This document shows, piece after piece, positions 14,331 to 47,243 of a DNA stretch of 64,000 bases. The notes below the pieces were generated by a model, which was given only the letters and a program-made list of their open reading frames with translations, was not told the DNA's origin and did no database searches. The number at the start of each line of letters is the position of its first letter. Position 1 is the stretch's first letter. Made by a program: the position numbers and the translations under genes. The stretch is from a virus, in IMG/VR virus record IMGVR_UViG_3300032291_003679, positions 1 to 64,000 of that record; one strand, written 5' to 3'.

Positions 14331-14427
14331 GACTTACCTACACCTACTAGGTGCATGCATTGCTCATGCAAAGAGCATGCCGTGAGCATGCCTGCGAGAA
14401 CGAGCAGAACAAGTGTAGGTAAGTGGG

Positions 14428-14688
14428 TCACGACTGGTACTGCGCTTGCTGTGTGTCCAGTGAGTCAATGAGGTTTGCGAGAATCGGCAGAACACTCATG
14501 CCCTCGTTGCCTATGAGAGTAGAGAAGTCTCTCTCTGCCATTCGCACCGTGTACTCCTGTGCAATGTCACGCTTCATGCCTTCGTAGTAGTGACAGAGCC
14601 GTGTGAGTGTGTCGTACAACTCGTCCAGCAGTTCTTCTGTTCGTTCGCTTGTTTCTTTCATCGTGTGTCTTTCTAGTAACGATTCCAA
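14428..14688 (-). CDS. hypothetical protein
   Basis: ORF track; natural composition. Confidence 0.5.
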   Translation of the reverse strand: MESLLERHTMKETSERTEELLDELYDTLTRLCHYYEGMKRDIAQEYTVRMAERDFSTLIGNEGMSVLPILANLIDSLDTQQAQYQS

Positions 14689-14859
14689 GTTATCTAACTT
14701 TCCCCCTTCCCACTACCCCTCACGGAGAACCAAAGGAGTAAAGATTCTCAACGCTCGGGGCAGTGGTGGTACAGGTGTAGGTAACTCCTGTACCAACGCC
14801 TTTGGAGTGGCAGTGAGTGTCCAAGCCCACTGCCACCCCTTAGGGCGACTTACCTACAC

Positions 14860-16422
14860 CTACTCACGCTCGGGGAGTGGTGTTCCCATGTGTTCGTACC
14901 ACACCTTACGGAACATGTGAGGGTACACGCTGTGCGCTTTGCCGTTCACTTTGAGGTTGTGCAACTGCGTAATGGCTTCCTCAATGTGAGGAACAACGAT
15001 GTAGCCGTGCTGTCGTGCGTAGGTCATGCACTGCATGGAAAGCAGTTCAGAGAATCCGTCATTTGCTCCACACACTCCACCGTCTGTTACCCATACGAGA
15101 GGTGTGTTCTTGTATTGACGATTCTTTACGCCCCACTCAATCGCAGGGAAGTCCACGCCGTTGCCGTGTCCGTAGTCAATGTATTCCACATTCTCAACCA
15201 TGCGTCCCTTGTCAGCAACTACCCAAGCGTTTGGGTGTTCTCCACCTGCTCGGTAACGGTCACTGTAAATCATCACGGTTGCGCCTTGTGCGTTCTCAAT
15301 GATTTCTGCAATCTGTTCAGTAGTGAATGACATAGAACCACTTGCGTCAATGATGACCATGCCACCACTGCCACGAACGGTCTTGTCAAAGACACGCTTC
15401 GCAGGGTCGGTCATGTAACGGTGCAATCGGCGTGGTCTGCGTCCCATGTTCGTAGCAATGCGCTTCTTGCCCATTGAGCCGTAGTGATAACGAGGCAGAG
15501 GCTCACGACTGACAACCAGTTCTGCCCACCCTGTCGCTCCACCGTGGTCGGCTGGAACTACTTTCCCATGTGGGTTTCCGTCCTTGTCGCCTTCGCTGTC
15601 TCCGTCCTGATACTCGGCAGAGTGTTCACCTGTCTTGTCACCGTCATCGGACTTACCTACACCTTCGCCTTCGCCATTTCCCTTCCCCTTCTTAGGGTCG
15701 TTCTTGCGAGCCTTCGGTGGTGGGAACGAGGCGAGCCTGTCCACCCATTCTGCTAAACGCTCGGTGTGAACGAATCCGTATGGAGCAATGCCGTCATGGG
15801 TGTCGGTGCTTGCGAGTGTGCGTGACTGGTGCGACTTGCGCATTTCCTTCATTGCTCGCTTGCCAATGTCCAGCAGTGCGTCACCCCATGCTCGGTTGTG
15901 CCTGCGTACTCCGTTCAGGAATGGCTTGTGTCCAGCCGTGCCGACTGTGGCGATACAGGTTGCAACTGCACCTGCCCAATCGTTTGACTTTGCTAGTTGT
16001 TCGCCTGCTGAAAGTTCGTTTCCGTCTGCGAGGTGATTCTTCACATCAAAGCCAGCCTGCTGACAGAGGTAGTTCACTCGTAGTTCCTCAACAACTGTCA
16101 TGGCAGTAGCAGAGGCAATAGAGCGACTAACAAACACTTCCATTTGCTCGGGCGAGGGTGACACTTTCGCATGCATCATTTCATGCGCACGAACTACACG
16201 CTCTAACTCACCGTCTGCTGACGGAGCGAACATGACACGGTTGGCAATGTCTGTACGAGGCTCGCCACGCACTGCACGACAGTCCTCAACGACCCAACGC
16301 TCATGGGCTAGGTCTTTGCGACCAAGCATGTTCGGTTCGGCACGGCTTGCGCCCCTCTCCACATCTGACAGTGGAGAGGGAAACGACTTACCTACACCTG
16401 ATTTGGTGGGGTTAGTGGACAT
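14860..16422 (-). CDS. HExxH metallopeptidase-like plus VWA domain protein (CobT/MoxR partner)
   Basis: HEMMH; DASGSM MIDAS motif; VTDG; adjacent AAA+ gene. Confidence 0.8.
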   Translation of the reverse strand: MSTNPTKSGVGKSFPSPLSDVERGASRAEPNMLGRKDLAHERWVVEDCRAVRGEPRTDIANRVMFAPSADGELERVVRAHEMMHAKVSPSPEQMEVFVSRSIASATAMTVVEELRVNYLCQQAGFDVKNHLADGNELSAGEQLAKSNDWAGAVATCIATVGTAGHKPFLNGVRRHNRAWGDALLDIGKRAMKEMRKSHQSRTLASTDTHDGIAPYGFVHTERLAEWVDRLASFPPPKARKNDPKKGKGNGEGEGVGKSDDGDKTGEHSAEYQDGDSEGDKDGNPHGKVVPADHGGATGWAELVVSREPLPRYHYGSMGKKRIATNMGRRPRRLHRYMTDPAKRVFDKTVRGSGGMVIIDASGSMSFTTEQIAEIIENAQGATVMIYSDRYRAGGEHPNAWVVADKGRMVENVEYIDYGHGNGVDFPAIEWGVKNRQYKNTPLVWVTDGGVCGANDGFSELLSMQCMTYARQHGYIVVPHIEEAITQLHNLKVNGKAHSVYPHMFRKVWYEHMGTPLPERE

Positions 16423-16424
16423 GG

Positions 16425-17147
16425 TTATTTCACTCCGTCCACTGCGAGAGCGTCAAGAATCTGCTTTGCACGATTTCCGAAAGTGAGTTGGCATGCTCGC
16501 TCCATTCCGACTGCCTTGCGCAACTTGTCCAACGCCATGAAAGCACGGAGAGAGATACGAGCCTCGCCACCGTCAGCCATGCGAACGGCGTATCCACGCA
16601 GGTCAGGAGAAAGACGGAGAAGTGCGTTTGGGTGTGGTTCGTTGATACGAACACGAATCGGGAAACGGTCAGCGAGTGCTGTTGGCAGTTCGCTCATGTT
16701 CTCAATGTTCGTGGTCATCACGGCAGAGAATCCGTCAAGTGGACGGACGATTTCACCAGTCTCGGGGTGTTGGAATGTTGCAGATTCAGGAGAATCCAAC
16801 ATGGCAAGAAGTGTTGCGAACACATCGCCACCAGCCTTGTCCACTTCATCAACAATAAGACGACCACCTGTTGTGCCGTTGCCTTTCCATGCTTTGAGAG
16901 CAGAGCCGTCAAGCCACTGGAAGCCACCGTCTTTGCTAGGCATGAAGCCACCAGTTACATCCATGTTGGTCATGTCCTCGGTGCAGACCAAGCGATGTGC
17001 GCCAGCCTCAATGTTTCCGAATGAAAGACCAGCGTAGGTCTTTCCTGTTCCAGCAGGTCCGAACAGAATGATTCTGTCAATACCCGAGTCAAGTGCGTCC
17101 TTGACATCTTGCCAGCACTGTGGCAATACCTCTTGTGTTGTGTCCAT
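16425..17147 (-). CDS. MoxR/CobS-type AAA+ ATPase
   Basis: GPAGTGKT, IVDEVD, ALADRF; start reassigned to MDTTQ after AAAGGAG. Confidence 0.88.
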   Translation of the reverse strand: MDTTQEVLPQCWQDVKDALDSGIDRIILFGPAGTGKTYAGLSFGNIEAGAHRLVCTEDMTNMDVTGGFMPSKDGGFQWLDGSALKAWKGNGTTGGRLIVDEVDKAGGDVFATLLAMLDSPESATFQHPETGEIVRPLDGFSAVMTTNIENMSELPTALADRFPIRVRINEPHPNALLRLSPDLRGYAVRMADGGEARISLRAFMALDKLRKAVGMERACQLTFGNRAKQILDALAVDGVK

Positions 17148-17484
17148 TGTTTGCTCCTTTGTAAGCGATTGGTTAGGGACAAGCAAACCATACCACTCGT
17201 GGGTCAGACTTCCCAACTTCACTTGACACCTTGCAACACAAGGGATTTGGACTTACCTACACCTATTGTTCTGACGATTCCGTGCCACTTACCTACACCT
17301 CTTATGTGTGGTCTGTGCGTTCCGAGCCACCTGCCGTGCGCCCCAACGCCGAGCCAGCCCTTACCTGCCCTGCCACCCCGAGTGCCTGCGCCTTCTTCGG
17401 GTGGAGCCCCGCGTTGTTCGGCGAGTCGGGCGGGGCTTAGGCCGACTTACCTACACCTAATGGGGACTTACCTACACCTAATGG

Positions 17485-17970
17485 TTACTCGTTGTCTTTG
17501 GGGTCTGAGATTCGCCACAGCCCCTTCTTGACCTTGATAAAAAGTGGAGATTCGCTCACATACTTCAGTGTTGTCTGGTACGAGAACCCAGCAACCTCAA
17601 CGAGCTGGTCGGTGGTGTATTCCTCACCTCGGTGTTCGTCTACCCACTTCTCAAAAGTTCCGTATTTATCTTTGCGTCTCTCGGTCTTGATGATTCCGTT
17701 ATTCGCAGTGCTGATGTGGGTAAGATACTTCTTGACGAACTCATTTATTACATCGTCACTGACGGAGTAAAAGCGAAGCATTGATACAGGGTTCCCATTG
17801 CACCCTTCCCTTTGCCACTTCTCCATGACATACAGCGCACGGACTGTCTCTGCAATGCGCCACATTTCCTGATGGTTGGCGTATTTCTGTTGTGGCTTCT
17901 TGTACTTCTTATCAAACTCGGCATACAACCGTGTGTTTTCTTCATGCACGAAATCAATAGTAAAGTTCAC
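17485..17970 (-). CDS. hypothetical protein with C-terminal HTH-like segment
   Basis: GTG start after AAGGA; YTTDQLVEVAGFSYQTTLKYV. Confidence 0.6.
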   Translation of the reverse strand: MNFTIDFVHEENTRLYAEFDKKYKKPQQKYANHQEMWRIAETVRALYVMEKWQREGCNGNPVSMLRFYSVSDDVINEFVKKYLTHISTANNGIIKTERRKDKYGTFEKWVDEHRGEEYTTDQLVEVAGFSYQTTLKYVSESPLFIKVKKGLWRISDPKDNE

Positions 17971-18321
17971 TTCTTTTTCCTTATTTAGATGTACCTGCAG
18001 CGCAACCCGTATGGACTCTAGCACTCGTCATCCAGACTTCCCCAAGTTGCAAATAAAAAATGAAAAACTGTGTTGCCAGTAAGCCCTATGGCTCGACTTC
18101 CACCACCGTCAAAGGGAAACCAACTAGAAAATCCTGCCGCCGGCTCGAGAACTGTTTTTCAAAAAATCAAAAAATCTGACACCCCTTAGTTGCTACGTAG
18201 CATTTTGACCGTTTCGTGCGGGGCTCCATCCCCCAAATGGCGAGGAAAAGAAAGAGGAGTGTCACTGCCAACTGAACAGCGACACCCCTCTTGGTGTAGG
18301 TAACTGAAAGGGGGGACTTAC

Positions 18322-18531
18322 CTACACCTGACCTATAACTACGAACTGGTCTCCTGCTTCCTCAACAAGACCGAGGTTGCTTCCGTTGTCCCATTTGACA
18401 AACACCGTTCCGATGTCGTCCACAAAGTCCACCGTCCCCTCTTCTCCTGATTTGAGTTTCGTGTAGGGGTCTGTGCATGTGATTAGCCTGACCCTCTTGC
18501 CGACTAGGTGTTCGTTTCTTGCTCGCCTCAT
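18322..18531 (-). CDS. DUF4314-like protein
   Basis: GKRVRLI..DPY..GTVDFVDDIGTVFVKWDNGSNLGLV. Confidence 0.8.
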   Translation of the reverse strand: MRRARNEHLVGKRVRLITCTDPYTKLKSGEEGTVDFVDDIGTVFVKWDNGSNLGLVEEAGDQFVVIGQV

Positions 18532-18674
18532 GCTGGAACCTCGCTTTCTGTATTGGTGCTGATTAGTAGGCGAATGTCTAAGAGCAGGTCGGTCATCTCT
18601 ACTGATGACACAATGTCCCTGCCCGAGCAGTGCGCTATTGCTTTATCCACTAGGGCGACAAGTTCAGTATCCAT
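18528..18674 (-). CDS. small hypothetical protein (48 aa, MDTELVALVDKAIAHC...)
   Basis: ATG directly after a 14-mer copy; ATGA coupling to the next gene. Confidence 0.55.
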   Translation of the reverse strand: MDTELVALVDKAIAHCSGRDIVSSVEMTDLLLDIRLLISTNTESEVPA

Positions 18675-18681
18675 GACTTAC

Positions 18682-19377
18682 CTACACCCCCTTGTCTTTC
18701 TTTTTCGGAGCCTTGTCAAGCATGTCTTTGTAAGCAAGCGTCTTGGTGGCAAGGTGCATGTAGCCAACCGTGGCAAGTAAAGCGTCAGGAATACGACCAT
18801 TTGTTTCATGCTCTTTGTCCACTGTGAATGTGTTGCACATTGGTTCTTCGTCAAACTCGGGAACTCCGTGGTCGTCATAGCGATAGAGGCTCGCAATGCT
18901 CCACACATTCGTAGCGTTCCAATCCACGGCAGTCATTATGATTCCTTCACGAACATCAGAAAATGGATTTTCTTTGTAGTCCTTCTCAAAGTCGCCTCTG
19001 TCGTGGTTATGTGCCTCTTCTTCGGTCATCTCTGACTTTGCGTATCCCTCAACGAGTAGAACAATAAAGTCAAACGGACGAATCGGGAGTGACTTCACAA
19101 CATCTTCGTAAGCGTCAAAAATGTCCTCTTTGTGAATGAGAGGAATCATCGCCAAGTGGTATGGCTTTGAGAGTGAGAACTCATGTTGGTAGTCCACGCA
19201 TGCTTCGTGGTCGGGATTACTGTCATTGCTCTCAACGGCAACAAGGAACAGTGGTGGACTGTCTTGCATTGGCTCGTCTTTGCACATTTCTGTCTTTGCA
19301 AAGACGGCTCGGTTGAGCAAATCTTCCATTATTGCTCTGATGTCGTTGTCAATAACTTCATTCTCTTGTGGTGTCAT
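18682..19377 (-). CDS. hypothetical protein
   Basis: GAAAGGGG RBS; own promoter; stop codon lies inside a 14-mer. Confidence 0.75.
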   Translation of the reverse strand: MTPQENEVIDNDIRAIMEDLLNRAVFAKTEMCKDEPMQDSPPLFLVAVESNDSNPDHEACVDYQHEFSLSKPYHLAMIPLIHKEDIFDAYEDVVKSLPIRPFDFIVLLVEGYAKSEMTEEEAHNHDRGDFEKDYKENPFSDVREGIIMTAVDWNATNVWSIASLYRYDDHGVPEFDEEPMCNTFTVDKEHETNGRIPDALLATVGYMHLATKTLAYKDMLDKAPKKKDKGV

Positions 19378-19499
19378 TGGTTGCCCCTTTCAGGCGTTTT
19401 GTGTTCATTGGAAGCATACCACTTGTGGGACAGACTTCCAATAGTTACCTACACTGGATAGTGGGAGTCGGTACAAGCCCCCACATGCCAGCCATTTTT

Positions 19500-19724
19500 C
19501 TACTTCTCTCCGAGCAGTGTGTTCACCGATACTCCAAGAGCATTACTTACAGCGAGCAGTGTTTCCACACTCGGCGTGAACTGCCCATTCTCAATACGGT
19601 TCACCGTTTTTCGGTCAAGACCTGCACGGTTGGCAAGTTCCAACTGTGACCAGCCGTTCTCGCTTCTGTGAACTCGTACGATTTCTGAGATTTGCTCAAT
19701 GGATTTAGTTGATGATGTTCCCAT
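19500..19724 (-). CDS. XRE/Cro-C1 HTH transcription regulator
   Basis: WSQLELANRAGLDRKTVNRIENGQFTPSVETLLAVSNAL. Confidence 0.9.
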   Translation of the reverse strand: MGTSSTKSIEQISEIVRVHRSENGWSQLELANRAGLDRKTVNRIENGQFTPSVETLLAVSNALGVSVNTLLGEK

Positions 19725-19787
19725 GTTGGGATTCCTTCTTTCTTTATTGGGGGATTATTTGTGTGTGTGTAGTTACCTACACCTATT

Positions 19788-20528: not shown

Positions 20529-20811
20529 TTGATTTTCCTTTCGGTTTGGTAGATACACAGAGCGTACCACCCTCGGGACAAACTTCCCCGAGTTACCTAC
20601 ACCTCTCTTCCACCACCGTCAAAGGGTTTAGTGGGGTGGGCTACCTGCTGCGCCCCCCGTCACGCGAGACCTCTTGCCCCCGACCCCGACTTGCCTGCCG
20701 AGCACCCCCAACTGCCTGCTCGTGCTGGAGCCCCGGCCGACTCGGAGCATGCGGGGCTTCTTGTCAAAGTATCCAATCGGATACTTTTTGTGCTGGAAAA
20801 GTTACCTACAC

Positions 20812-21114: not shown

Positions 21115-21124
21115 TTACCTACAC

Positions 21125-22093: not shown

Positions 22094-22460
22094 GATTTCC
22101 CTTTCGCATTGGCTTCGCCATCACAGTACCACACAGGGGACAGACTTCCCAAAGCACAGAGTTACCTACACCCACACGGTCTTCCACCACCGTCATTGTG
22201 TTGAGAGATACCTGCTGCGCCCACCCGTTGTTTTTTCATTTTTTTGTTTTTTCAGTTTTTTCGGGTTACCTGCTGCGCACCCCCACGCGTTCCAGCGACT
22301 GCTTCCCGAGGAAGCCCCGGCCCGATTCGTGGTCCGATTCGTAGCGGGGCTCCTACTCCAAAGCCCGACTCGGGAGTCACTTATCTAGCCGTGACCCGAG
22401 AGTTACCTACACCTATCCCCCCTCGCCCAACCGAGACGAGAGAGAACAGGTGTAGGTAAG

Positions 22461-23558: not shown

Positions 23559-23960
23559 TCAGACTGCTTCTGACTTGGCAGTGGGCTTGACTGCGCCCTT
23601 CGCAGGGCGTACCAGCACTCGTACTGACGAGGTGACGGACACGACTGCTTTGATGACTTTCGCAGACACTTTGCCTTCCTTCACAGCCCTGTCCCACGCA
23701 GAGGTGTCCACAGAGGGCTTGGTGACGGTACGGAACAGAGGTGCGCTGATGAGGTCACGCAACTTGTCGGTGTCAAATGAACGACGGTCACTTGGGCTGA
23801 CCTTGATGTTGAGTTCTGCGTAATCCAGCGTTTCTACGCCGTGCTTCGCATAGACATTCAGCAAGAGTTCACGAGCCTCGTCGTGAGCCTGCTCTGCTTG
23901 TTCTCGGGCAGTGAGAGCGTTTAGAAACGCCTCGGTTGCTTCCAATACTTCCTTGTTCAT
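23559..23960 (-). CDS. hypothetical protein (coiled-coil N-terminus)
   Basis: GAAAGGG RBS; own promoter. Confidence 0.7.
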   Translation of the reverse strand: MNKEVLEATEAFLNALTAREQAEQAHDEARELLLNVYAKHGVETLDYAELNIKVSPSDRRSFDTDKLRDLISAPLFRTVTKPSVDTSAWDRAVKEGKVSAKVIKAVVSVTSSVRVLVRPAKGAVKPTAKSEAV

Positions 23961-24968: not shown

Positions 24969-25056
24969 TGGTTTCCCTTTCGGTTGGAGTTGTAGGCACA
25001 CGAACAGTACCACTCGTGGTTCAGACTTCCGAGAGTTACCTACACCTAGATAGTAA

Positions 25057-25587: not shown

Positions 25588-25953
25588 TGGATACCCTTTC
25601 GGTTGGTTGTTAGTGGAACACCGTCAGCGTACCACGCTTAGTACAAACTTCCCGACTTACCTACACCTGTCAGGTCGCTTTCCACCACCGTCATTCATTT
25701 GAGGGGGTGTGCTGTTCCTCTCAAACGCCCTGACCTGCCTGCCGTACCCACCCGTGTTCCCACCCCGATAGTTGCGCTCGCAACCATCTTGGGCGTGGGA
25801 GCCCCGGCCTTTCCGAGCGTAGCGGGGCTCCTGCCCCGAAACCAGCCGAGTAGTGAATAGGTCGGGGACTTACCTACACCTCACATGAAAGGGGGGTGTG
25901 AGGTGTAGGTATCCCGAACGCCTAGCCCTGTGGGGTGGTGGGGCTAGGCGAGG

Positions 25954-26690: not shown

Positions 26691-27102
26691 TGTTGTCCCC
26701 TTTCGGTTGGTGATGTAGTGGACACCTGAACTGTACCACCACACGGACAGACTTCCGACCCGACCTACCTGCCGAACCCACCCGTGTTGAGCCCCTGCCC
26801 TGCTTGTCCGTAGGGAGCCCCGTTGCTTTGCCGATTCGTAGCGGGGCTCCCACCCCCAAGCCGACCCCTCGGTGAACGGGTTGGCTCGGCAGGTAGCTCA
26901 AACATTCTGCTATTCCCTTTGTTCCTGTTTGTGAGGAGAGAATAACGGAGTTGTCTGTGTCGCCTCTCGCCTCATTCTGTGTCGCCTCTCGCCTCATTAG
27001 GTGTAGGTAAGTCTCGGGGGCAGTCTGCTGACAACAACATACCTACACCCAATAGGTCATCCCATTAGGTGTAGGTAAGTCTCGGGGCAGGGGCAGAGAG
27101 GG

Positions 27103-27366: not shown

Positions 27367-27446
27367 GTCATTACCGTACCACGCTAGGTACAGACTTCCA
27401 AACAGAGTTACCTACACCCAATCGGACTTACCTACACCCAATCGGG

Positions 27447-27860
27447 CTAGCCGTAGATGAGCGTTCCGAATACGGCGAACTGAATAATCACATCGCCTGC
27501 CTCTGCGTCAATGTCAAGGTCGCAATCGCCATCGCTGTAGTAATCAAAGCCGATGTCCTGTTTCTGCGCAGAACACGCCGAGATGTATCCGTTGTAGATG
27601 TCCTGCACCGTGAGAACACGATGAACAAGGTCAGAGTCATCATCGCCATCAGGGTCAATGACTGCAACTTTCAGGAAAGGCTGGTCATCGCTGTCGGGAA
27701 TGTTGTTGTAATCCACGCCGACCCACCAATCGTATGACTCCCACACGGAGTCAATGATTGCCGAGATGAACTCCGTGCGCTCAATGAGCGTTTCAGGCTT
27801 CACGGTTGGATAGTTGCGCTCAACCAATGTGGTTGAGTCAAGTGGGGTGAGTTCGGACAT
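27447..27860 (-). CDS. conserved phage hypothetical protein
   Basis: DAEAGDVIIQFAVFGTLIYG C-terminus; GAAAGG RBS. Confidence 0.7.
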   Translation of the reverse strand: MSELTPLDSTTLVERNYPTVKPETLIERTEFISAIIDSVWESYDWWVGVDYNNIPDSDDQPFLKVAVIDPDGDDDSDLVHRVLTVQDIYNGYISACSAQKQDIGFDYYSDGDCDLDIDAEAGDVIIQFAVFGTLIYG

Positions 27861-28247
27861 TGTGTGCCTGCCTTTCGGTTGGTGGTTGCTGGCGACACCA
27901 ATGTACCACGACAGGGTCAGACTTCCCACTCGGACTTACCTACACCTGTTGGGGACAACCGAGCGAAGCGAGAGCGTCAGACACCCCCGACCTACCTGCC
28001 GAACTCCCCCGTGTTACGCCCACGAGGGGTTGGGCGTGGGAGCCCCGGTTGATTTGCGAAGTGCAACGGGGCTCCTCCCCCACGCAGGCTTTGCGCTGTG
28101 AACGGGTTGGCTCGGCAGGTAGCGCACAAGTTTATTATTTTGTTCGTTCCTTTTTGTGGGGGGCAATACGACTCGCCTACACCCAACAGGTCTCCCCGTT
28201 AGGTGTAGGTAAGTCAGAGCGCAAGTTGTCGGGAGAGTTACCTACAC

Positions 28248-30659: not shown

Positions 30660-31826
30660 CTACGAAACCAGTATGCGCGCCTTGCTTGGGCGTTTGTAGA
30701 ACCCAAAGCACTCATCACGGTCTGAACGCTCAACGCTCGCCGTGAACTCGATACGGTCACCCACGCTTGGGTCAAGCGCGCTAGGTTGCGAACCCCACAC
30801 GGTAAAGCCAGAGTCGTCACGCACGGTCATGACATAGCGCGTACCAAAGTCAGTATCTTTACTGTCCACCGATACAACCTTGCCGACTATCGTCACGCGA
30901 CCCACAGGGCAGGGTACGCGAACCTCATTAGCGCGTTCTTGCTCGCGTTCAGCCTTGCGCTCGGCAGATTCGAGGTGCTTGTCATAGGCACGAGCAAGGG
31001 ACACCAGCAAGCCCATGCGCTTGCTATCGGTCACGCCAGCAAGCACCACAGAACGCAGGTTCGCGAGATAGCCACTTTCATCAGTAGTTGCGCTAATCCA
31101 CTCGATAGCCAGCACAGCGCGCTCGTAATGCTCGCTAGTGGTCTCGACTTTCTCATCGCGACCTCTTGGGCGTAGAGCGTTATCTACTCGCATACGCGTA
31201 GTAATACCTTCGACACGATTACCGTCAGCGTCAGTAGAACTACGCCAGCCATGCGCCTCGATACACGCGAACGACAGCGCGACAATGCGTGTCAGGGACT
31301 CGCTCGAACCACCACCCGATGAACGGTAGTCATCACTCCACTCGCTCAAATCGTCATCGAAAGTTTCCCACACAGCAGGCAAATCATGACCAGTAAAGTC
31401 ACGCAAGCATGACTTACCTACACGATGACTAACGCCAGCCTCATCGCGAATAACTATCGTGAACTTGCGCGCACGATTATGCCCACAATGGTCACAGGTA
31501 GCAGGTGCGTTCAGCAGGTCAGTAGGTGCGTGTTCGCGAGCGTATGGTGCAACGCTCACGATGTTGCCCGTATCGAAATGCTCAACGCTTGCTACTACTT
31601 GCCAGCCACCAGCCAACACAGGGCGTTCACCGTGAACCACATACGCGATGAACGGCTCGACACACTCGCGACCCGACTCATCAGTACGCTTCTCGATAAA
31701 TCGACGCGTAATCTCGACTACGGGTGCAGATACACCCATGCGCTGGCAACGCTTCGCTAGAACGCGCTCGCGCTCGACTAACTCGGCTTCATAGTACGCA
31801 GGAACGATAATCTCGCTAGTGGTCAT
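30660..31826 (-). CDS. conserved phage protein with Zn-binding motif and C-terminal OB-fold
   Basis: CDHC..VGKSCL; GRVTIVGKVVS..GDRIEFTASV. Confidence 0.75.
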   Translation of the reverse strand: MTTSEIIVPAYYEAELVERERVLAKRCQRMGVSAPVVEITRRFIEKRTDESGRECVEPFIAYVVHGERPVLAGGWQVVASVEHFDTGNIVSVAPYAREHAPTDLLNAPATCDHCGHNRARKFTIVIRDEAGVSHRVGKSCLRDFTGHDLPAVWETFDDDLSEWSDDYRSSGGGSSESLTRIVALSFACIEAHGWRSSTDADGNRVEGITTRMRVDNALRPRGRDEKVETTSEHYERAVLAIEWISATTDESGYLANLRSVVLAGVTDSKRMGLLVSLARAYDKHLESAERKAEREQERANEVRVPCPVGRVTIVGKVVSVDSKDTDFGTRYVMTVRDDSGFTVWGSQPSALDPSVGDRIEFTASVERSDRDECFGFYKRPSKARILVS

Positions 31827-32120
31827 GACTTCCCCTTTCAGTAGGAACACCCAAACAATACCAGCACAGGTACAGGCTTCCCGATAGAGACTTACCTACA
31901 CCTGATGCGACTTACCTACACCTCTCGGACTTACCTACACCTAATCCGTCAGCAGGCGAACGAACAACAGCGTCAGCGTCAGCACGACCTACCTGCCGAC
32001 CCCACCCGTGTCGCGCCCCCTTCTGGGGGTTTGGGGGTGGGAGCCCCGAGGAAATCGGCGAAGTGCAACGGGGCTCCTCTTTCCAGCGCTGTCCCCACCC
32101 TCGCATGGTCGGGGACTTAC

Positions 32121-32788: not shown

Positions 32789-33059
32789 TGGTGTGTCCCC
32801 TTTGTTGTTGGTGGGCTGCTGCCCACAAGCAATGTACCACGCACGGTTCAGACTTCCGAGGGTTACCTGCCGTTCTCCCCCGTTTCCGTGCCGTGTGCCG
32901 AGCAGGGGAGCCCCGTCGGTTGTCGCCGACTTTCGCGGGGCTCCTGCCCCCAGCGAGAACCTCTGGCACGGGTGGGTTCGGCAGGTAAGTGTGGAAGCCT
33001 GCCCCACGAGTGGTATCGTTTGGCAGGCCAACAAGGGCCGTACCTGAAAGGGGTATCCA

Positions 33060-35802: not shown

Positions 35803-36126
35803 ATGGCAACACCAAAGAAGAAACCAGTCGTAAAGAAAGCTCCGGCCAAGAAAAAGCCTGCAGCCAAGAAAGCCGTAGCGAAGAAGACCCCAGCGAAGAA
35901 GACCCCAGCAAAGAAAGCTCCTGCCAAGAAGACTGCAGCCAAGAAGGCATCGCCGGCAAAGAAGGGCACGCTCCCTCGTAAGAGCGCAAAGACAACCACA
36001 AGTGCTGCAACTGCTACTTCCACGACTTCTGTCACTTCACGTGTGAAGATTATCCCCATCACCAAGACCAGCGTTACCTCCACTGTTTCGGGTGCGAAGG
36101 TTACCTACAAGGTTAAGAAAAAGTGA
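35803..36126 (+). CDS. histone H1-like / HupB-tail-like Lys-Ala-Pro DNA-binding protein
   Basis: PAKK repeats; AAGGAG RBS. Confidence 0.75.
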   Translation: MATPKKKPVVKKAPAKKKPAAKKAVAKKTPAKKTPAKKAPAKKTAAKKASPAKKGTLPRKSAKTTTSAATATSTTSVTSRVKIIPITKTSVTSTVSGAKVTYKVKKK

Positions 36127-36602: not shown

Positions 36603-36803
36603 CTAAAAAAGTGGAATGTCTGCGCTTGGAGCCTTAGAGGCGCAGAACTCATGCTTGTATTCATGAAGCTCCTCAACAACACGATTGACTGTCTTGCCGT
36701 TCGACTTCAGCCATACGATGGTTTTACGTTCTACCGTATTGTCTCCAGGGCGAAGCGAAAGTCCACAGATAGAGCAGGTGAATAGTGGTGGCAATCCAGC
36801 CAT
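36603..36803 (-). CDS. small Zn-binding protein
   Basis: GAGGGAGG RBS; CxxC..HxxC. Confidence 0.55.
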   Translation of the reverse strand: MAGLPPLFTCSICGLSLRPGDNTVERKTIVWLKSNGKTVNRVVEELHEYKHEFCASKAPSADIPLF

Positions 36804-36884
36804 GTCAGTCCCTCCCTCGTGGGGATTTCTTTAGAAGTAGATAAGTAAGCAAGAGCACTGCCAGTCCAAGGAAAGCGCTGCAAC

Positions 36885-37070
36885 TCACTTTCGCCAGTCC
36901 CTTACGAAACCGTCCATGTAGTTCTCCATGGCTTCGTCTGTGCCACACTCAGAGCAGATTTCCGTCTTGTTATCAAGGCGCGAAATAGCCCCCGGGTATG
37001 CCCCCGGCATTTCGTTGTTGGGAATAAATCCCTCACAACGGGGACAAATGTGCTTTGTCGCTGTGTGCAT
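36885..37070 (-). CDS. small Zn-finger protein
   Basis: CPRC..AISRLDNKTEICSECG; AGGAG RBS. Confidence 0.7.
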   Translation of the reverse strand: MHTATKHICPRCEGFIPNNEMPGAYPGAISRLDNKTEICSECGTDEAMENYMDGFVRDWRK

Positions 37071-37254
37071 TGTTTCTCTCCTGTGTCTAGGTACATGAGG
37101 AATAATAGCCCCACTTATGGAATCTTGCAACAGTTTGCTGCAGCAGGTCATTATGTGACTAGTATGTGCCTAGGACCGGTGGGGCTCGCGCAACCTCTCT
37201 CCTTTCGGTACATCCCCAGTGCGAGCCTCGCCGGTTTCTACTATTCTAGAAACA

Positions 37255-40699: not shown

Positions 40700-40911
40700 A
40701 GTGTCTCCGTCTCTCTATCGTGTAGATAAATCTATCTGAAAGATGTGTCGTGTAGGGGAAGTGTAGGTAAGTAGTGCGGGGCTCCCGAAGGGAGGAGGCT
40801 CACCTGTGCGCTGTGAGACGGGTGAGCACGGCAGGTGACTCGGGAAGCCTGACCCACCCGTGGTACTCTGTGGGTGTCGGGGGGAAAGTCTCCCCGACAA
40901 AGGAGTTCATC

Positions 40912-41418: not shown

Positions 41419-41450
41419 CCCGAAGAGGTGTAGGTAACCCAAGACGGACA

Positions 41451-41512
41451 GCCCCCACCCCACGCCCCCACCCCACGCCCCCACCCCACGCCCGAACACC
41501 CACGCCCCCACC
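41451..41512. repeat. 13-bp C-rich tandem repeat (GCCCCCACCCCAC) x3 plus degenerate copies
   Basis: Seen directly in sequence. Confidence 0.8.
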
Positions 41513-41672
41513 TGCCTCCGAGAGCAGAGGGCAAGCCGAGCGAAGCGAGACGGGAGAAAGCGAGGAACCAAGCGGGGCTCCTACCCCAATGACGGTGCAT
41601 GGGTGCATACACGGGTGGGCACGGCAGGTAGTCCGATTTGGAAGTCTGAACCGTTAGTGGTACATTTATGGC

Positions 41673-42881
41673 ATGACCGAAGTTTCATCTGCCTCAATCG
41701 CCTTTGACCTGCACACGCGATACTTGGAATATCGCAAGAGCCACCCAACGATGGACAGGCTCTTACATCTCGGATACTTTCGCGCCATGTGGGCAGACGA
41801 CGATACGCCTATTCTGACCCGTGAGGCATTAGAGAGCGAAGCAAAAATGGGCGCAGTTCATCACGAAGTACATCGCGCACTAGACGACACAATCATCGCA
41901 CTCGGTGACACCGTGTTTCTCACTGACGACTTGCGTGAGTTGGTCAAGACGGCAGAAGTAACAATGCCTGATGAGGTGTTATTTGAGACGGACATTTTCA
42001 CCCCGTGTGGATTCATCGTGATGGAGACTCCACTGCCACAAACGGTGAAGTCGCTTATCAAGGCCGAAGATTTTGACGAAGTGCTAACACTCTCAAAAAA
42101 GTACGGCGCAATCATCACTGGAACGCGCAACGACACTGAACCTGACGAAGATGGAAACTATGTAGGCGTAGAGAACTGGGAAGTGCAGGCGTTTGCATGG
42201 GCTGACGCGAGCGCAATAACACCCGAAGCACTTTCGGAAATAGAGAGACGGTTTGGGAAAGACAGCAACGAGTACGCCTTCGCTCAAAACATTTCTAAGA
42301 ACTCAGGAAATGACAGTGCCATTCAGGTGCGTGTTTTCGGAACTCTTATCTCTACCACTGTCAATGGGCTAACGATAGAAGTTCCACAACTACACCTTGC
42401 CCCTTTACGACTAATGGATATGTACGCGTTCTTCTACGGCGAAGATGGAATGGAAATAGAACGCGAAGTAAGTGGTGTAGGTAACTTTTCAGAGGCCGAC
42501 CTGAACGAGTCCTCATGGGAACGAAGCAGAGAAGTGCGCCGATTTCTTGTTGCTCTGTTCCGTCTCATGGACGAGTATGTGGACATTGACAGGCACGGCC
42601 TGCATCGCGCTTTCGGAAAGCGAGCAACCCGTGGTGGCCGAACAGGTGACACGAAGAATGTCACGATTCTCTCACTGCGTCGTGCGCTCGGTGATGATGA
42701 AGAAGGAATCGGTGCAGGAGCGAAGGTGACGCTCGCGCATCTCGTCCGTGGCCACTGGCGCAATCAGTGGTATCCATCACAGAAGATGCACCGTGCGAAA
42801 TGGATACGCGCACACCGTCGTGGTGGCAGTGCTGGTGATGAAGTGACTGCACGGCCTCGCATCATCAAGGTGGACAGATAG
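41673..42881 (+). CDS. conserved phage protein with C-terminal VRGHWR motif, leaderless
   Basis: HLVRGHWRNQWYPS..WIRAHRRG; ATG 6 nt after TACATT. Confidence 0.8.
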   Translation: MTEVSSASIAFDLHTRYLEYRKSHPTMDRLLHLGYFRAMWADDDTPILTREALESEAKMGAVHHEVHRALDDTIIALGDTVFLTDDLRELVKTAEVTMPDEVLFETDIFTPCGFIVMETPLPQTVKSLIKAEDFDEVLTLSKKYGAIITGTRNDTEPDEDGNYVGVENWEVQAFAWADASAITPEALSEIERRFGKDSNEYAFAQNISKNSGNDSAIQVRVFGTLISTTVNGLTIEVPQLHLAPLRLMDMYAFFYGEDGMEIEREVSGVGNFSEADLNESSWERSREVRRFLVALFRLMDEYVDIDRHGLHRAFGKRATRGGRTGDTKNVTILSLRRALGDDEEGIGAGAKVTLAHLVRGHWRNQWYPSQKMHRAKWIRAHRRGGSAGDEVTARPRIIKVDR

Positions 42882-42947
42882 AACCTGTGGACTTACCTAC
42901 ACCCGTAGCAGGCTCGCTATCAGGTGTAGGTAAGTCCGTTGGCCGTA

Positions 42948-43139
42948 TTAGTCTCGCGTTGGCGTGATTGCGAAACTGACTGAACGCTCGTCGTTGCGAG
43001 TCTCTGGAAAGTAGAACGCAAGACCGAGCCACGCTTGCGCTTCTCGCTTGCTGGCGAAGCCCGTGGCCTCAACCGTTGAGCGAGAGCGTCCGTTCGCGAG
43101 AACGGCAACGCGTGTGATGGTGAATGTGGAATGTGCCAT
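42948..43139 (-). CDS. small hypothetical protein
   Basis: GAAAGGGG RBS; own promoter. Confidence 0.6.
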   Translation of the reverse strand: MAHSTFTITRVAVLANGRSRSTVEATGFASKREAQAWLGLAFYFPETRNDERSVSFAITPTRD

Positions 43140-43378
43140 GATGAACCCCTTTCGTTCGGCAACACACACAGAGTACCACCGATGGAACAGACTTTCCAAA
43201 AGTGCATGATTACCTACACCTATTCGGCGCAACACTCGCACTCTATGCGAGGACAACCGAACGAAGTGAGGGCGTCAGCACCGGGGCTCCCACTCTCCAA
43301 CCATGCATAAGCACCGTGCCGAGACTTACCTACACCTAGTAGATGAGTGCCGACACGGTGAATACGCCGTGTACCGAA

Positions 43379-44083
43379 TCAGTATGCGTGTGGCGCGTCT
43401 ACTTCCATAGGTGCACGACACACATGACAGAGTGGGGACTCTGAACCGTCCTCACCGAATAGAGGTGTTTCGTCATCAGCGAGCGAGTACCCATGAGACT
43501 GCGAAAGCATTTCACCGTAGTTGCATTCCACTGAATGTTCTTCATCGTTCGGGCAAGTGAGCGAGTAGTTTGCGTTGTCGTATGGGAACGACTCTGCCAT
43601 GTCTACCGTGACACGGAATGCACGAGGACGCGTGTAGCCACCACGAACATCGCAACCCCCGTGAATCTGCAAGAGCACGAACACTTCACCACCGTCCGAG
43701 AATGTCACGCCCTGCAATGTCTGCGCGAGTGAGTCCTCTCCGTTGTATGTGTTCCATGTGTGTGCACTGTCGTCCTTTTCTGTTGCGAACTCTTGTGCGA
43801 GACCGAGCCACCCGTCATCAGGGTTCTCTTCACAGAACGCACGGAACTGCTTGTCCAAGAGTGGTGCATACTCCAATCGTTCTGAAAGGTAGTGATAGAC
43901 CGAGAGCGTCACGCCCCACTTGTCTGCCCATGCGCGAGGTTGCGCGTCCCACTCTGCGAGTGTGCGACCTGCGTTCTGTTCCCAGTGTCTCCCGTAGGCT
44001 CCACCACTGTCCAAGATGTGTCGTCCCGTAGGCTCCGTGAGCATTTCTGCGATTACTTCGCGTGTGCGTGTTGTTGTCTTCAT
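43379..44083 (-). CDS. conserved phage hypothetical protein
   Basis: HILDSGGAYGRHW; HGGCDVRGGYT. Confidence 0.75.
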   Translation of the reverse strand: MKTTTRTREVIAEMLTEPTGRHILDSGGAYGRHWEQNAGRTLAEWDAQPRAWADKWGVTLSVYHYLSERLEYAPLLDKQFRAFCEENPDDGWLGLAQEFATEKDDSAHTWNTYNGEDSLAQTLQGVTFSDGGEVFVLLQIHGGCDVRGGYTRPRAFRVTVDMAESFPYDNANYSLTCPNDEEHSVECNYGEMLSQSHGYSLADDETPLFGEDGSESPLCHVCRAPMEVDAPHAY

Positions 44084-44397
44084 GACTTACCTACACCCTT
44101 GTAAGGGTATGACGGGTGTGCCCGTCGCCCCTTGTGGCGAAGTGTGGCGATTTCGTTGCGTGACCACAGCGTGAGAAGTGTGCTGACAATCGTGCCAACA
44201 ATGGTGACGAACAATCCTGCGAAAGTATCGTACGCAGTGTGACTCCAATAAGAGAGAACAACAAGGTACGCACCAAGCGTGGTCACGAGATACGAAGCCC
44301 CCGTGATGAATCGGTAGATGAATGTTGGATAGTTGTCGTCCAACCAGTTAGTAGCCCGTGCGTCTGCTCGGTCTAGTTTGTCAATAATGTTTGCCAT
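44080..44397 (-). CDS. 2-TM membrane protein
   Basis: Start MANIID after GAAAGGG; ends GVGKS. Confidence 0.65.
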   Translation of the reverse strand: MANIIDKLDRADARATNWLDDNYPTFIYRFITGASYLVTTLGAYLVVLSYWSHTAYDTFAGLFVTIVGTIVSTLLTLWSRNEIATLRHKGRRAHPSYPYKGVGKS

Positions 44398-44568
44398 GTG
44401 GATTCCCTTTCCGTTTGAGTTGGCAAGATGAGCGTACCACAGTGGGGACAGACTTTCCGACCTACCTGCCGTGCCTCCCCGATGTGGCGAGGGGTGGGAT
44501 ACTTCCCCTGCTGGGAGCCCCGTTGTTTTTGACTCTTCTGTCATAACAGACACGAGTCGGTGACTTAC

Positions 44569-44826
44569 CTACACCTCGTCATCACCACGCAGGTAGTTGG
44601 CACGCATCACTTCCGTGCTGGCCTCACCTGTTTGGTCAAGCGTCGTGATGTCGTACACAGCACCACAGCGATAACACAGGTACGAAAAACCGTCCCATGC
44701 ACCCGTGGCGTCGGGGGCGATTATCTCTCCTGTTGGGAGACACGAGTAGAAGCCGTCGATGTCAGGTTCATTACCACATTCACAGACGAGCCAGTCTGCT
44801 GTAGTGCGTTCGAGATTGAGTGTCAT
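44569..44826 (-). CDS. small Zn-binding protein
   Basis: CECGN..CYRCG; stop lies inside a 14-mer. Confidence 0.7.
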   Translation of the reverse strand: MTLNLERTTADWLVCECGNEPDIDGFYSCLPTGEIIAPDATGAWDGFSYLCYRCGAVYDITTLDQTGEASTEVMRANYLRGDDEV

Positions 44827-45302
44827 GATGGTTCCTCTTGATGGGTGATGGAAGATACATCATAGGGGTTTTCTTCAGGGTCGTCATGCCACACGCCATC
44901 AGGCCATGCAGTACGTGTGTGTACTCCATGAACGTTCTTGCCGAAGATGTCAGTGGCCTGCCATGCATGTGTGCAACACGGCACTGGGGTGTCTCGTGAG
45001 TCAGGGTGACAGTTCTGTCCAATGTCTTGAGCGAGTAGAGGGAACGTAGCGAGGAACTTGGCAACACAGTCATGACAAAGAATCCATTCACGTGTACGCA
45101 GGCTTCCTGTCAGTACACGAACGTTGTCATCGAATCCACCGTAGTAGCCGAATGTGTCAAAGGGTAAGACCCAACCATTGTCAGGGTATGACTCCTGTTG
45201 TGTACACGGCACTGATGCACAGCATGCTGAACATCGTGCGTGCTTGACGACTGGTGTAGATGGTGTGATGAATGGTGACTGTGTGTCAGGCGTATCGCTC
45301 AT
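44823..45302 (-). CDS. Cys-rich hypothetical protein, leaderless
   Basis: ATG 7 nt after TACTCT. Confidence 0.65.
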   Translation of the reverse strand: MSDTPDTQSPFITPSTPVVKHARCSACCASVPCTQQESYPDNGWVLPFDTFGYYGGFDDNVRVLTGSLRTREWILCHDCVAKFLATFPLLAQDIGQNCHPDSRDTPVPCCTHAWQATDIFGKNVHGVHTRTAWPDGVWHDDPEENPYDVSSITHQEEPS

Positions 45303-45396
45303 GCGAGAAAGAGTACCAGTATGGGGACAGACTTACAACGTACCTGCAGTGCAACCCATGAGACGCCCGTGGCACTTGCGTCGTTCATGCTGATGG

Positions 45397-45762
45397 TCAG
45401 GTGACGATGTGTCCTGATGTCATGCGATACAGCACTGCGTAGCAGAAGCGTCTGCGCTGTGTGATGCTCCACTCCACCTGATAACGATGGTGTCTGTTGA
45501 GCATGTCGATGTCTGCCTGCGAACGGTGTATGCCTAGTTCCATCTCTGTCTCTATCATGATGGACATGATGTTCACCTCACTACCCGTGGCACTGCGAGG
45601 CGTCACACCTGCCTCTCGGCACGCCTGAAACACCTTGGTCATGAACATCGAGCATGCGAGCATGTGCTCAAGCTCTTCATCGTCAGTGAGGTAGTCATTG
45701 GTCAAGCGTGATACACGAATGGCCTGATGTACCTTGCGCTTAGGTATGTAGATGCCTGACAT
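45397..45762 (-). CDS. hypothetical protein
   Basis: ORF track. Confidence 0.55.
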   Translation of the reverse strand: MSGIYIPKRKVHQAIRVSRLTNDYLTDDEELEHMLACSMFMTKVFQACREAGVTPRSATGSEVNIMSIMIETEMELGIHRSQADIDMLNRHHRYQVEWSITQRRRFCYAVLYRMTSGHIVT

Positions 45763-45974
45763 GAGGCAAGGGTATCACTCACTAGGTGAGCGTGTCCCCT
45801 ATCCCCATTTGATTTCTTTCGTCTGTTTCTCTTGGGGCTCTACTGCTACTACATCAAGCATGCTCCCCTGATTGAGTAGAGAGTGAACCATTGAGATTGC
45901 TTCGTCAATGTTCATTGGGGCGTCAAGGTCACTGCGCTTACGCACTGCGACGGTGATTCTGTATGTATCCATGC

Positions 45975-46193
45975 TTAGCACCATACAGCCTTCCATAGTC
46001 GCGCAACGCTTTGTGCTTGCTGAGGTGATTGACAAGGGATACGTCTGATGGTGTGTTGCGTCCCCTCTGATGAGGGTAGGGACAACCACACCTCCACGTC
46101 ATCACCAATGGCATTGACGTGAGTGACTGTCCCCTCTGATGAAAGGTCAGTGATGTGAGAGGTGAGTAGGTCTAGTGATGTCATGAGGGACAC
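45975..46193 (-). CDS. small hypothetical protein
   Basis: ORF track; followed by a second small gene at about 45799-45972. Confidence 0.45.
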   Translation of the reverse strand: MSLMTSLDLLTSHITDLSSEGTVTHVNAIGDDVEVWLSLPSSEGTQHTIRRIPCQSPQQAQSVARLWKAVWC

Positions 46194-47243
46194 AGTACAT
46201 CAGGGGTGGTACATAGTCAATGGGGTGACGATGATGTGGGGTAGCGATGTTCAGGGGGGTATGGTGTTACTCGTATGACACCCGTGACACCTCGCAAACA
46301 TTCACGCTCTCACTCACCTATGGCACGCCTATGGCAAGGGTGGTGCGACCTCTATGACAAGTGGTGGTCACGATGGTCACGATGGAGCAATGGCATAGGG
46401 CTTGACCCCTTTCCTCTCGCAATCGCAATCGGGTGTGTGGTGATGGCACTGCTCACACTGCTGTCTATTGGTCGTGTGTAGTACACCCGTGGCCCCCTGC
46501 GATTGACCTTACCTACACCTCAGGCGAACAGGTACGGCTTGACCTACTGGCCTTGCGCTTGTGGCATAGACGACACGCTTGCTTGCCTCATACATTGCGA
46601 GCATCACGCTATGCGCTTGCCTCACTAAGACATACGTCATTGGTAAACGATTGACGCTTGTCTGTTGTCTGCTTTGATTGGGCTATGTGCTTTCGCATAG
46701 CGTCAAGCACAACTCGGACAGTGCTCTCGCATAAGTCGTATGACCCACAGAACCCGAGAACCCGAAGGACCCGAAAACCCGAAAGGCATTGCGCTGACCT
46801 TGCTTGTATGAAAGGCAACGACGAACGACCAACGCACTTCGTGTGCGTGCGTCATTGAGTGGTGAGAGCAGGGGTATGTGTGTGTTTCTCTGTGTAGACA
46901 AGACACTGCTAGGGGCGAGACGAAGGGTGGCGTTTGGTTGTGACGTTCGCCTTCGCTGTGCTCCTCTATTGACGAGATACCTGCTGTGCTTCCCCACTCT
47001 TGGCTCTGCTCTGCTTGCTTCGTTCTGTCCACAGTGGTCGACGATTGACACGGTCACGCCTCTGTCCACAGAACTGACCATCGACGCCACCAGAGAGAAG
47101 GCACCCCCTTGGAGCCCCGCCGGCTTTCAGTCGAACCCCCAGCGCCGGGGGGAGCTAAAAATCAAATTTTTATGGCCACCTTTTTTTATCTTAATTTATC
47201 CAAACCGCTTGTGTTCGTCCCCAGGGCTGTGTACTATGTGCTC

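Follow-up and report, generated by a model that had tools for sequence, protein, structure and literature searches.

We analyzed a window that spans positions 1 to 64,000 of IMG/VR record IMGVR_UViG_3300032291_003679 (hereafter g0), a virus genome assembled as one contig of 158,021 bp. This window contains a dense array of a short asymmetric DNA word, a 14-mer with the core TTACCTACAC, which is concentrated in one gene block, is read mostly on the coding strand, is linked to the promoters of this block and changes in concert at orthologous sites among related phages. We tentatively favor, at somewhat less than an even chance, the interpretation that the word provides the sites of a phage-encoded monomeric regulator, those at promoters being operators and those at gene ends polar blocks.

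The core matched the window exactly 76 times, with 52 copies on the plus strand and 24 on the minus strand, whereas 0.11 matches were expected from shuffled sequences (largest number in a shuffle, 1). A first-pass annotation of this DNA, made from the sequence alone, had counted about 75 copies (52 forward, 23 reverse) in one region of about 32 kb, and both statements agree well with our data, since 74 of the 76 copies lie between 14.3 and 46.5 kb. Over the whole genome, the core copies span positions 11,767 to 52,647; a comparable density was sought in the remainder of the genome, and zero core copies were present between 53 and 158 kb. The full word, AGGTGTAGGTAAGT, was represented by 38 exact copies, 22 copies with one mismatch and 16 copies with two mismatches, and none with up to two mismatches was found in the g0 genome outside 11-47 kb. 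Base counts at each position gave the consensus (a/t)tAG-GTGTAGGTAA-(G/C)TC, which carries TAG and TAA in two frames. The conserved flank is limited to about 5 nt upstream and about 3 nt downstream, and the sequence is random beyond, indicating that the word itself is the selected or repeated unit and not a by-product of longer duplications. Neighboring copies form direct tandems with spacings of 21, 20, 20, and 19 bp, in accordance with the 19 to 21 bp annotated at the same places, which would put the copies on one face of the helix. Another 10 neighbor pairs are inverted, at separations of 17-47 bp. The block that harbors the array is about 65-68% coding and consists of some 48 mostly small genes arranged in self-promoted cassettes.

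About 270 relatives are present in IMG/VR, among which the complete genomes g1 (156 kb) and g3 (151 kb) are syntenic with g0 throughout, the GC-rich block included. The g0 word occurs 0-1 times in syntenic relatives, each of which carries a variant of its own in about 70-100 copies confined to the syntenic block. Confinement to a single block was also observed in two more complete genomes (G007 and G008), hence in four complete relatives altogether. These variant words, which we term dialects, include GAGTAGATAAGT, AGGTAGATAAGT, and ACTAGATAAGT. The commonest 10-mer is GAGTAGATAA(G)T in g1 and AGGTAGATAAGT in g3, whereas AGAGTAGATAACT, CTAATAGATAACT, ACTnACTAGATAAGT, AATAGATAAGTC, and several odder forms were noted in further contigs; the words of the two dialects referred to below as d1 and d2 are AGGTGTAGGTAAGTC and GGAGTAGATAAGTC, respectively. 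In total, there are at least 10 dialects, which share the invariant TAGrTAAsT, and every one of them keeps TAG and TAA in two frames. The relatives also bear on the two copies that the first-pass annotation had set apart from the region. The copy at 11767 is a real member of the array, because g1 carries its own dialect at the aligned place, whereas the copy at 52647 probably is, as annotated, due to chance.

The replacement of one dialect by another occurs at orthologous sites. Among the g0 sites that could be aligned with g1, 40 of 46 bear the g1 dialect at the same position, and g6, a relative with the dialect of g0, has this word at 28 of the 32 sites that could be aligned. Contigs with genes that are 89-94% identical bear different dialects. 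The change even reaches coding sequence: in three genes the g0 copy reads Gly-Val-Gly-Lys/Asn and the g1 copy Gly/Glu-Val-Asp-Lys/Asn, and this change from Gly to Asp, in which the protein follows the dialect, indicates that selection acts on the DNA word. The more distant g3 has no motif at these three in-gene places. Drift acting independently at each site cannot account for the fixation of two substitutions at dozens of orthologous positions whose flanks are random, and gene conversion of 14-bp tracts is an implausible source of the dialect change. Selection to match one trans-acting reader would be the economical explanation. The directional recognition of the word by a sequence-specific factor in this single region, as proposed in the first-pass annotation, is borne out indirectly but strongly, by the dialect change and by the tie to the -35 zone described below. 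A search of IMG/VR with the exact 15-mer returned a single match in each of the best 80 of at least 119 matching stretches, that is, chance matches, and a literature search on the words themselves gave nothing relevant.

The orientation and placement of the copies were analyzed with gene calls from an ad hoc coding-potential caller, which are approximate. With respect to the nearest gene, 57 of the block copies of g0 are sense and 17 antisense (p=3e-6), in keeping with the annotated preference for the coding strand, and most antisense copies (11 of 17) belong to inverted pairs. The number of copies that are fully intergenic is 58 of 74 (p=6e-16), as compared to the 32% expected. All 16 gene-touching copies are sense, 11 being internal to a gene and 5 overlapping a stop codon. 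A sense copy overlaps the stop codon or lies no more than 12 nt after it in 16 of the 48 genes. The same picture emerged from the relatives, in which the ratio of sense to antisense copies was 70:22 (g1) and 54:19 (g3), the intergenic bias was likewise reproduced, and gene-internal copies had ratios of 11:1 (g1) and 8:1 (g3), as compared to 11:0 in g0. Counting and orienting the motif over the genome and its relatives, a check that had been suggested along with the annotation, has returned arrays in the dialect of each phage, with the same confinement in four complete relatives and the same sense bias in g1 and g3.

On the coding strand, the gaps between genes show a recurring order: a stop codon with a copy, often a hairpin, a second copy, a promoter, a short leader with GAAAGGGG, and the ATG. 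The gap hairpin, GGAGCCCCG-N15-22-CGGGGCTCC, lies within a palindromic module of about 125 bp. The promoter form GGAAGTCTG-N9-TGGTAYnnT has 21 matches in the 158-kb genome, all of them within the block (17187-44457), and the hairpin GAGCCCCG...CGGGGCT also has 21 matches, counted on both strands and corresponding to about 13 distinct loci, again all in the block. The promoter element resembles in form the sigma-A promoters of actinobacteria that have an extended -10. Conservation of the promoter box extends into the spacer (-33 to -25), an indication that another factor, independent of dialect, binds there. In g0, the distance from the end of the 14-mer to the downstream box is 4-13 nt for 13 copies, and at the remaining promoters a related word, CAGGTAGGT, stands in the place of the 14-mer. 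In g1, the gap between the end of the dialect word and the box is 2-3 nt at 16 of the 18 promoters, and contig L221 shows the same near-fixed arrangement. In g3, the box is part of the word in 14 copies (GTAGATAAGTCTG), and 10 of these 14 have the TGGTA -10 at a fixed offset (GTAGATAAGTCTG-N9-TGGTA), from which it follows that the -35 zone is provided by the word. The box (GAAGTC) and the 3' half of the word (TAAGTC) are in this sense interchangeable, and the word is placed where a bound protein would touch or exclude sigma region 4.

Other repeats accompany these promoters. The palindromic intergenic modules occur between 20728 and 34083 (e.g., 26763-26889, 27990-28120, and 32861-32990) and have outer arms TACCTGCCGA.../...TCGGCAGGTA, inner arms ACCCGT/ACGGGT, and the central hairpin GGAGCCCCG-N-CGGGGCTCC; the module at 32.8-33.0 kb feeds two back-to-back promoters, and the hairpin core is kept in all relatives. 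A further repeat, TTGACGGTGGTGGAAG, is situated shortly upstream of some promoter-proximal copies (20600-20640, 22175-22200, 25680-25700, and others) and is the top k-mer in relative L250.

If a lineage-specific regulator is the reader of the word, the observations can be arranged as follows. A candidate phage-encoded sequence-specific protein would recognize the 14-mer and, because the site is asymmetric, would probably bind as a monomer. It would control the transcription of the only block that has host-type (sigma-A-like, extended -10) promoters. Copies that adjoin or overlap the -35 zone would be operators on about 13-21 promoters, whereas sense copies at stop codons, between cassettes, and in genes would be orientation-dependent blocks or insulators to the elongating RNA polymerase. 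Selection for a match with the lineage's own protein would keep each dialect uniform across the 70-100 sites. We infer in this way that the word is bound by a protein, that binding represses the promoters, and that gene-end copies stop transcription. Actinobacterial promoters with an extended -10 are expected to fire with the unaided host holoenzyme, which would favor negative control.

The closest precedent for such an arrangement is, as the first-pass annotation had proposed, the stoperators of phage L5 and its Cluster A relatives. In these phages, a monomeric repressor with two DNA-binding domains recognizes an asymmetric 13-mer, operators and stoperators are located at promoters and in short intergenic spaces, the block requires an orientation tied to transcription, and the motifs vary between related phages and track the distance between repressors (PMC9283540, PMC6550527). 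The R4-like Streptomyces phages also have a stoperator-type system (PMC10276819). The array in g0 shares with the Cluster A systems (L5 gp71, the TipsytheTRex repressor) and R4-like systems an asymmetric 13-14-bp word in many copies, an orientation that goes with transcription, sites at promoters and in short gaps near stop and start codons, and a word that varies among related phages. A Cluster A-type repressor/stoperator system is expected to have more than 20 copies of an asymmetric 13-14-bp word, as compared to 76 core copies here, and the copies at promoters (in g0 and g3) and at stop codons correspond to the sites at the early promoter and in short intergenic spaces. However, Cluster A and R4-like phages have about 20-36 sites, as compared to 75-100, or about 1 per 430 bp, here; Cluster A sites are spread genome-wide and serve one early promoter, whereas those described here occupy one 32-36-kb block of a 150-170-kb genome with about 21 promoters; and, unlike in Cluster A, the word can itself supply the -35 zone, while no gp71 homologue and no integrase were found here. 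The array is most likely a functional analogue of the L5/Cluster A system and not a member of the family, because it is confined to a block, is about four times denser, involves about 21 promoters, and is found in a genome in which we detected no gp71 homologue and, apart from an atypical, fast-evolving ParA-like gene, no lysogeny genes.

Several observations weigh against the regulator interpretation. The near-fixed spacing between word and -35 box in g1 suits an activator equally well, the copy density is about 4-fold that of L5, and the 3-5 copies of g0 that are located 3 nt before an ATG act as ribosome-binding or start contexts. No integrase or resolvase (PF00589, PF00239) was detected in g0, whereas lysogeny is the usual setting of stoperators. 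Screens for a binder among the g0 proteins gave none. A search with L5 gp71 (tblastn and phmmer against g0, g1, g3, and g6) did not result in a significant match, the best one (E=0.5) being to a helix-turn-helix (HTH) motif. Among the binders named in the first-pass annotation, the HTH of a protein with an HA domain and a sigma-70 region-4-like HTH (HA-sigma4), the XRE-type protein, and the MarR/TrmB-type protein have recognition helices that are identical over at least seven dialects, and we rejected them as dialect readers, in the case of HA-sigma4 only provisionally. Positions 41 and 66 of the HA domain separate dialects d1 and d2, but they were discarded as dialect determinants since G011 has the d2 core and yet S66/E41. 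Finally, no open reading frame (ORF) of G011 is markedly closer to g1 than to g0.

WhiB, another protein proposed as a binder, is also conserved, its DNA-reading part being invariant across dialects, and it was discarded as a dialect reader as well. The probable targets of HA-sigma4, XRE, and MarR/TrmB are conserved elements, for example the box or the palindromic module. In 38 relatives, HA-sigma4 has an invariant HTH and an invariant basic helix (YIRQRxRK), and it is a good candidate for recognizing the conserved promoter box; no homologue was found in cultured phages. Its residue S66 accompanies three other dialects too, and its AlphaFold2 (AF2) model consists of two helical domains with a disordered linker, for which Foldseek gave only weak HTH matches. 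A screen that compared ORF similarity according to dialect with similarity over the genome (g0/g6 versus g1/G011) gave no convincing candidate. In a Cys/His protein of 66 aa (36603-36803), three variable positions of the tail are common to g1 and G011, but two of these recur in c8, whose dialect is different, and the protein was rejected. Overall, the motif differs between related phages, and no protein that co-varies with the dialect was found in the screens. The region 36603-37151 (-), in the lower-GC part of the block, encodes two small zinc-ribbon-like proteins rich in Cys (66 and 88 aa); they are conserved in all relatives and belong to no family. To the left of the block, the WhiB-family protein is encoded at 7921-8271 (+) and the MarR/TrmB-type winged-helix protein at 4227-4676 (-). 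Both are highly conserved across the phage family, and WhiB points to an actinobacterial host.

Positive control was considered as well. The word may be the upstream element of a phage promoter class, bound by an activator that recruits or remodels the host RNA polymerase in a MotA-like or class II manner, with the other copies being reservoirs or weak promoters. In T4 middle promoters, a MotA box in the -35/-30 zone is joined to an extended -10, in tens of copies. The position of the word 2-3 nt before the box in g1, its replacement of the box in the -35 zone of g3, and the similarity between its 3' half and the box are all consistent with an activator, as is a box that reaches into the spacer, which is unusual for a plain -35 contact. 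However, MotA boxes are present only at promoters and at a fixed distance, whereas most copies here are off promoters: no fixed distance to the -10 holds for every copy, only about 15-20% of the copies are at promoters (13/76 in g0 and about 16/98 in g1), and the spacing in g0 varies from 4 to 13 nt. An activator leaves unexplained that the other copies are strongly sense-biased and located at stop codons or in genes, promoters would not normally carry convergent inverted pairs or triple tandems, and TGn-TAnnnT promoters should need no activator. No MotA or AsiA homologue turned up in g0, although no search was aimed at them. We consider an activator box possible but unlikely.

The word, once transcribed, could also be a signal at the RNA level for processing, termination, stabilization, or translation, read by a phage RNA-binding protein or nuclease. 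The strict sense bias, the copies at or shortly after the stop codons of 16 of 48 genes, and those located 3 nt before an ATG are in line with such a role, as are the TAG and TAA in two frames of every dialect, a part of the word that resembles a Shine-Dalgarno sequence (AGGTG), and inverted pairs that could form stems of 11-13 bp. Against it stand the fixed -35/-10 register in g1 and g3, which is a property of DNA, the helical 19-21 bp phasing of the tandems, and the Rfam search, which identified only tRNAs and no family in the block. Strong terminator-like hairpins come after some inverted pairs, and perfect copies are located downstream of terminator-like hairpins and upstream of the next transcription start, a position that favors a role of the DNA itself. 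Together, the promoter register, the helical phasing, and the copies in stretches that are presumably little transcribed point to a function on DNA, and we regard an RNA signal as very improbable.

We also analyzed the array with respect to gene shuffling. In the promoter-early stem-loop (PeSL) cassettes of T4-like phages, a promoter plus stem-loop is repeated in the intergenic spaces of a plastic region (PMC2839356, PMC4122927). In the same manner, the word, promoter, and hairpin might form cassette boundaries at which early genes are shuffled by homologous or site-specific recombination, without a dedicated reader; this possibility had been raised in the first-pass annotation too. As with PeSLs, promoter and stem-loop are repeated between small early genes, and insertions, deletions, and swaps between relatives end at these units. 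Of 24 ends of homology between g0 and g1, 11 are within 30 nt of a copy, and the median distance is 36 nt, a value that was reached in 0 of 2000 random draws, as compared to 163 nt for random positions. A one-gene cassette (27376-27943) has been moved and inverted in g1, with copies at both ends, and the order of cassettes is permuted between G011 and g0, the promoter-side ends being at copies. The block also encodes a protein similar to one annotated as RecT-like. However, PeSLs are read by the host polymerase and act through homology, a concerted lineage-specific short word has not been described for them, and the 14-mer, unlike a PeSL, is also present in genes and at stop codons, off promoters. 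Host promoter and terminator function plus homology alone are insufficient, as concerted change is seen in the 14-mer, whereas promoter and hairpin are constant in relatives. Uniform sequences are not required for homologous recombination, and the two-base change at 40 orthologous sites, in-gene ones included, would stay unexplained. No tyrosine or serine recombinase was found in g0. The breakpoint analysis itself is confounded, since copies lie at gene ends and dialect mismatches themselves end alignments, and the effect vanishes with g3. Of the annotated proposal, the association of breakpoints and shuffled cassettes with copies has held up, whereas an integrase or resolvase to act on them has not been found. 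Joints as the sole function of the array are in our opinion improbable, and shuffling is the probable side effect or second role of the repeats.

Two proteins of the block touch on recombination. The 396-aa protein encoded at 30660-31850 (-) (phrog_2319) resembles a protein annotated as RecT-like annealing in a Tunturiibacter phage, and a 133-aa protein (23559-23960, -) has a faint RecE-like match. The block may on this basis encode its own recombination functions. Comparison of L222/G011 with window positions 20000-43000 showed permuted cassettes, though single genes have 82-89% DNA identity, and the block appears from these comparisons to be a mosaic, hyperplastic region.

The position of a gene for a ParA-like protein at the center of the block raises the question of centromere-like or condensation sites, at which a partner of this protein would bind the word in order to segregate or organize the block or a plasmid-like prophage. 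Short repeats in direct or inverted orientation make up the arrays of type Ib centromeres. The ParA-like protein is unusually divergent between dialects, no integrase was found in g0, and both facts would fit. No known centromere, however, resembles an array of 75 gene-oriented sites over 32 kb; all ParA-like orthologues lack the lysine of Walker A; and there is no conserved small partner gene after parA, since the downstream genes vary between genomes. We attach little credence to this explanation, which appears highly improbable. The protein itself is ParA/MinD-like, and its Walker A is KGGVG(T/V)(S/T)T in all orthologues, with the P-loop lysine absent; its identity is 45% between g0 and g1 and 34% between g0 and g3, as compared to about 80% for its neighbors. 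Among the variable genes downstream, g1 has one for an 87-aa winged-helix-like protein.

A last alternative is that the word is read by the host, as a Chi-like or uptake-like sequence or as a transcription factor site, with variants that mirror different hosts. The uptake sequences of Neisseria and Haemophilus are short oriented words in very many copies and also have lineage-specific variants (dialects). They are, however, distributed genome-wide, often as inverted pairs in terminators, and read by a competence protein of the cell, unlike the word in g0, which is confined to one block of a virus, amounting to one fifth of the genome, and is registered to promoters. Its orientation flips with each local gene, single inverted genes included, and not with the genome end or replication, and dialects differ between contigs whose common genes are 89-94% identical. 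We give this explanation hardly any credence. The same dependence of orientation on local gene direction, and not on a genome end, leaves without support the earlier suggestion that the array protects or pulls newly injected DNA.

As we read it, the array may represent a form of operator/stoperator logic in an unstudied family of large lake phages. In a broader and speculative version, which we judge distinctly unlikely, a family of freshwater actinophage-like viruses of 150-170 kb would keep cassettes in a private dialect, read by a new monomeric protein unrelated to gp71 that switches the block, and the tags would double as exchange joints and be rewritten to the resident dialect, amounting to an integron-like economy without an integrase and with immunity-like control. 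If a lineage-specific regulator reads these sites, this would be the densest and most sharply bounded operator/stoperator-type array known and, found in abundant uncultured lake viruses, also the first one from phages other than small temperate actinophages. The dialects, with orthologous sites rewritten down to the codons, would form a ready data set on how specificity changes with about 80 targets, and the series would offer a way to study how phages keep early programs private in co-infection. The cassettes of word, promoter, short leader, and gene could serve as orthogonal, portable control parts for Actinobacteria. The features discussed are listed in Table 1.

Table 1. Positions of the array, selected copies, and associated genes and promoters in the window
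Feature	Start	End	Strand	Remarks
Block with 74/76 copies	14331	46520		GC 0.50-0.57, versus 0.43-0.47 elsewhere
Outlying true copy, left of block	11767	11776	-	g1 dialect at aligned place
Probable chance copy	52647	52656	+	Antisense inside sugar-nucleotide gene; relatives without motif there
Triple direct tandem, 20 + 19 bp	31892	31940	-	Ends 10 nt upstream of promoter box 31881-31855
Double tandem, 20 bp	27408	27437	-	Just past stop codon, 8 nt upstream of promoter box; one end of cassette 27376-27943
Double tandem, 21 bp	17447	17477	-	8 nt past stop codon of gene 17485-17970
Inverted pair, 11-bp arms, 24 bp apart	18294	18327		Followed by strong terminator-like hairpin 18292-18252
Inverted pair, 21 bp apart	23510	23540		
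Stop-overlapping copy	34723	34732	+	Ends 3 nt before ATG of next gene
In-gene copy, GVGK in 520-aa protein	15653	15662	-	g1 orthologue GVDK from own dialect; g3 without motif
In-gene copy, GVGK	26560	26569	-	g1 orthologue GVDK
In-gene copy near C terminus of SNF2 helicase, SVGN	39110	39119	+	g1 orthologue EVDN
Typical promoter unit	25004	25045	-	Copy 25036-25045, 5 nt, GGAAGTCTG-N9-TGGTACTGT
Two back-to-back promoters of same class around palindromic module	32831	33019		CAGGTAAGT/CAGGTAACC variant replaces 14-mer
One-gene cassette	27376	27943	-	Elsewhere and inverted in g1; ends 37 and 2 nt from copies
Protein with HA domain and sigma-70 region-4-like HTH	13574	13957	+	Left block edge; HTH invariant over all dialects
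XRE-type HTH protein in block	19500	19724	-	Recognition helix invariant over dialects
ParA-like P-loop protein	33060	33680	+	Block divergence point; Walker-A KGGVGTST

The g0 genome encodes a portal protein, tail fibers, and the WhiB, MarR/TrmB-type, and XRE regulators. Genes in the block code for an AAA ATPase, the SNF2 helicase, DUF932, DUF3846, XRE, H1-like basic, and ParA-like proteins, and many unknowns; from this content the block looks like an early or host-interaction region. Most of the approximately 60 proteins of the block and its flanks have no family in Pfam or PHROGs. A Lys/Ala-rich protein of 107 aa (35803-36126, +) has a weak match to histone H1-like HC2 and may be a non-specific DNA-coating protein. 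The word was also considered as the promoter of a phage polymerase or sigma factor, and this was rejected: in g0, we found no match to PF00940 (the control gave no match either), no sigma region 2 (PF04542), and no T7-type polymerase. Three giant ORFs (G000 58545-68984, 85000-92175, and 93877-102939, all on the minus strand) code for proteins of 3479, 2391, and 3020 aa, in which Pfam detected no polymerase domain. In the 3020-aa ORF, a prohead protease is joined to ArdC-N, zincin peptidase, and UvrD-like helicase domains, whereas the 3479-aa ORF contains an RNase T-like exonuclease domain.

No close DNA or protein relative of the block, the 520-aa protein, or HA-sigma4 was found among cultured phages. 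The portal protein has at best 44% identity to proteins of cultured phages, those of Brevibacterium and Gordonia. Among GTDB genomes, only two short contigs of metagenome-assembled genomes (MAGs) matched, one binned as Actinomycetota and the other as Gammaproteobacteria, and neither provides a context for integration. DNA of this phage occurs in lake and other freshwater metagenomes.

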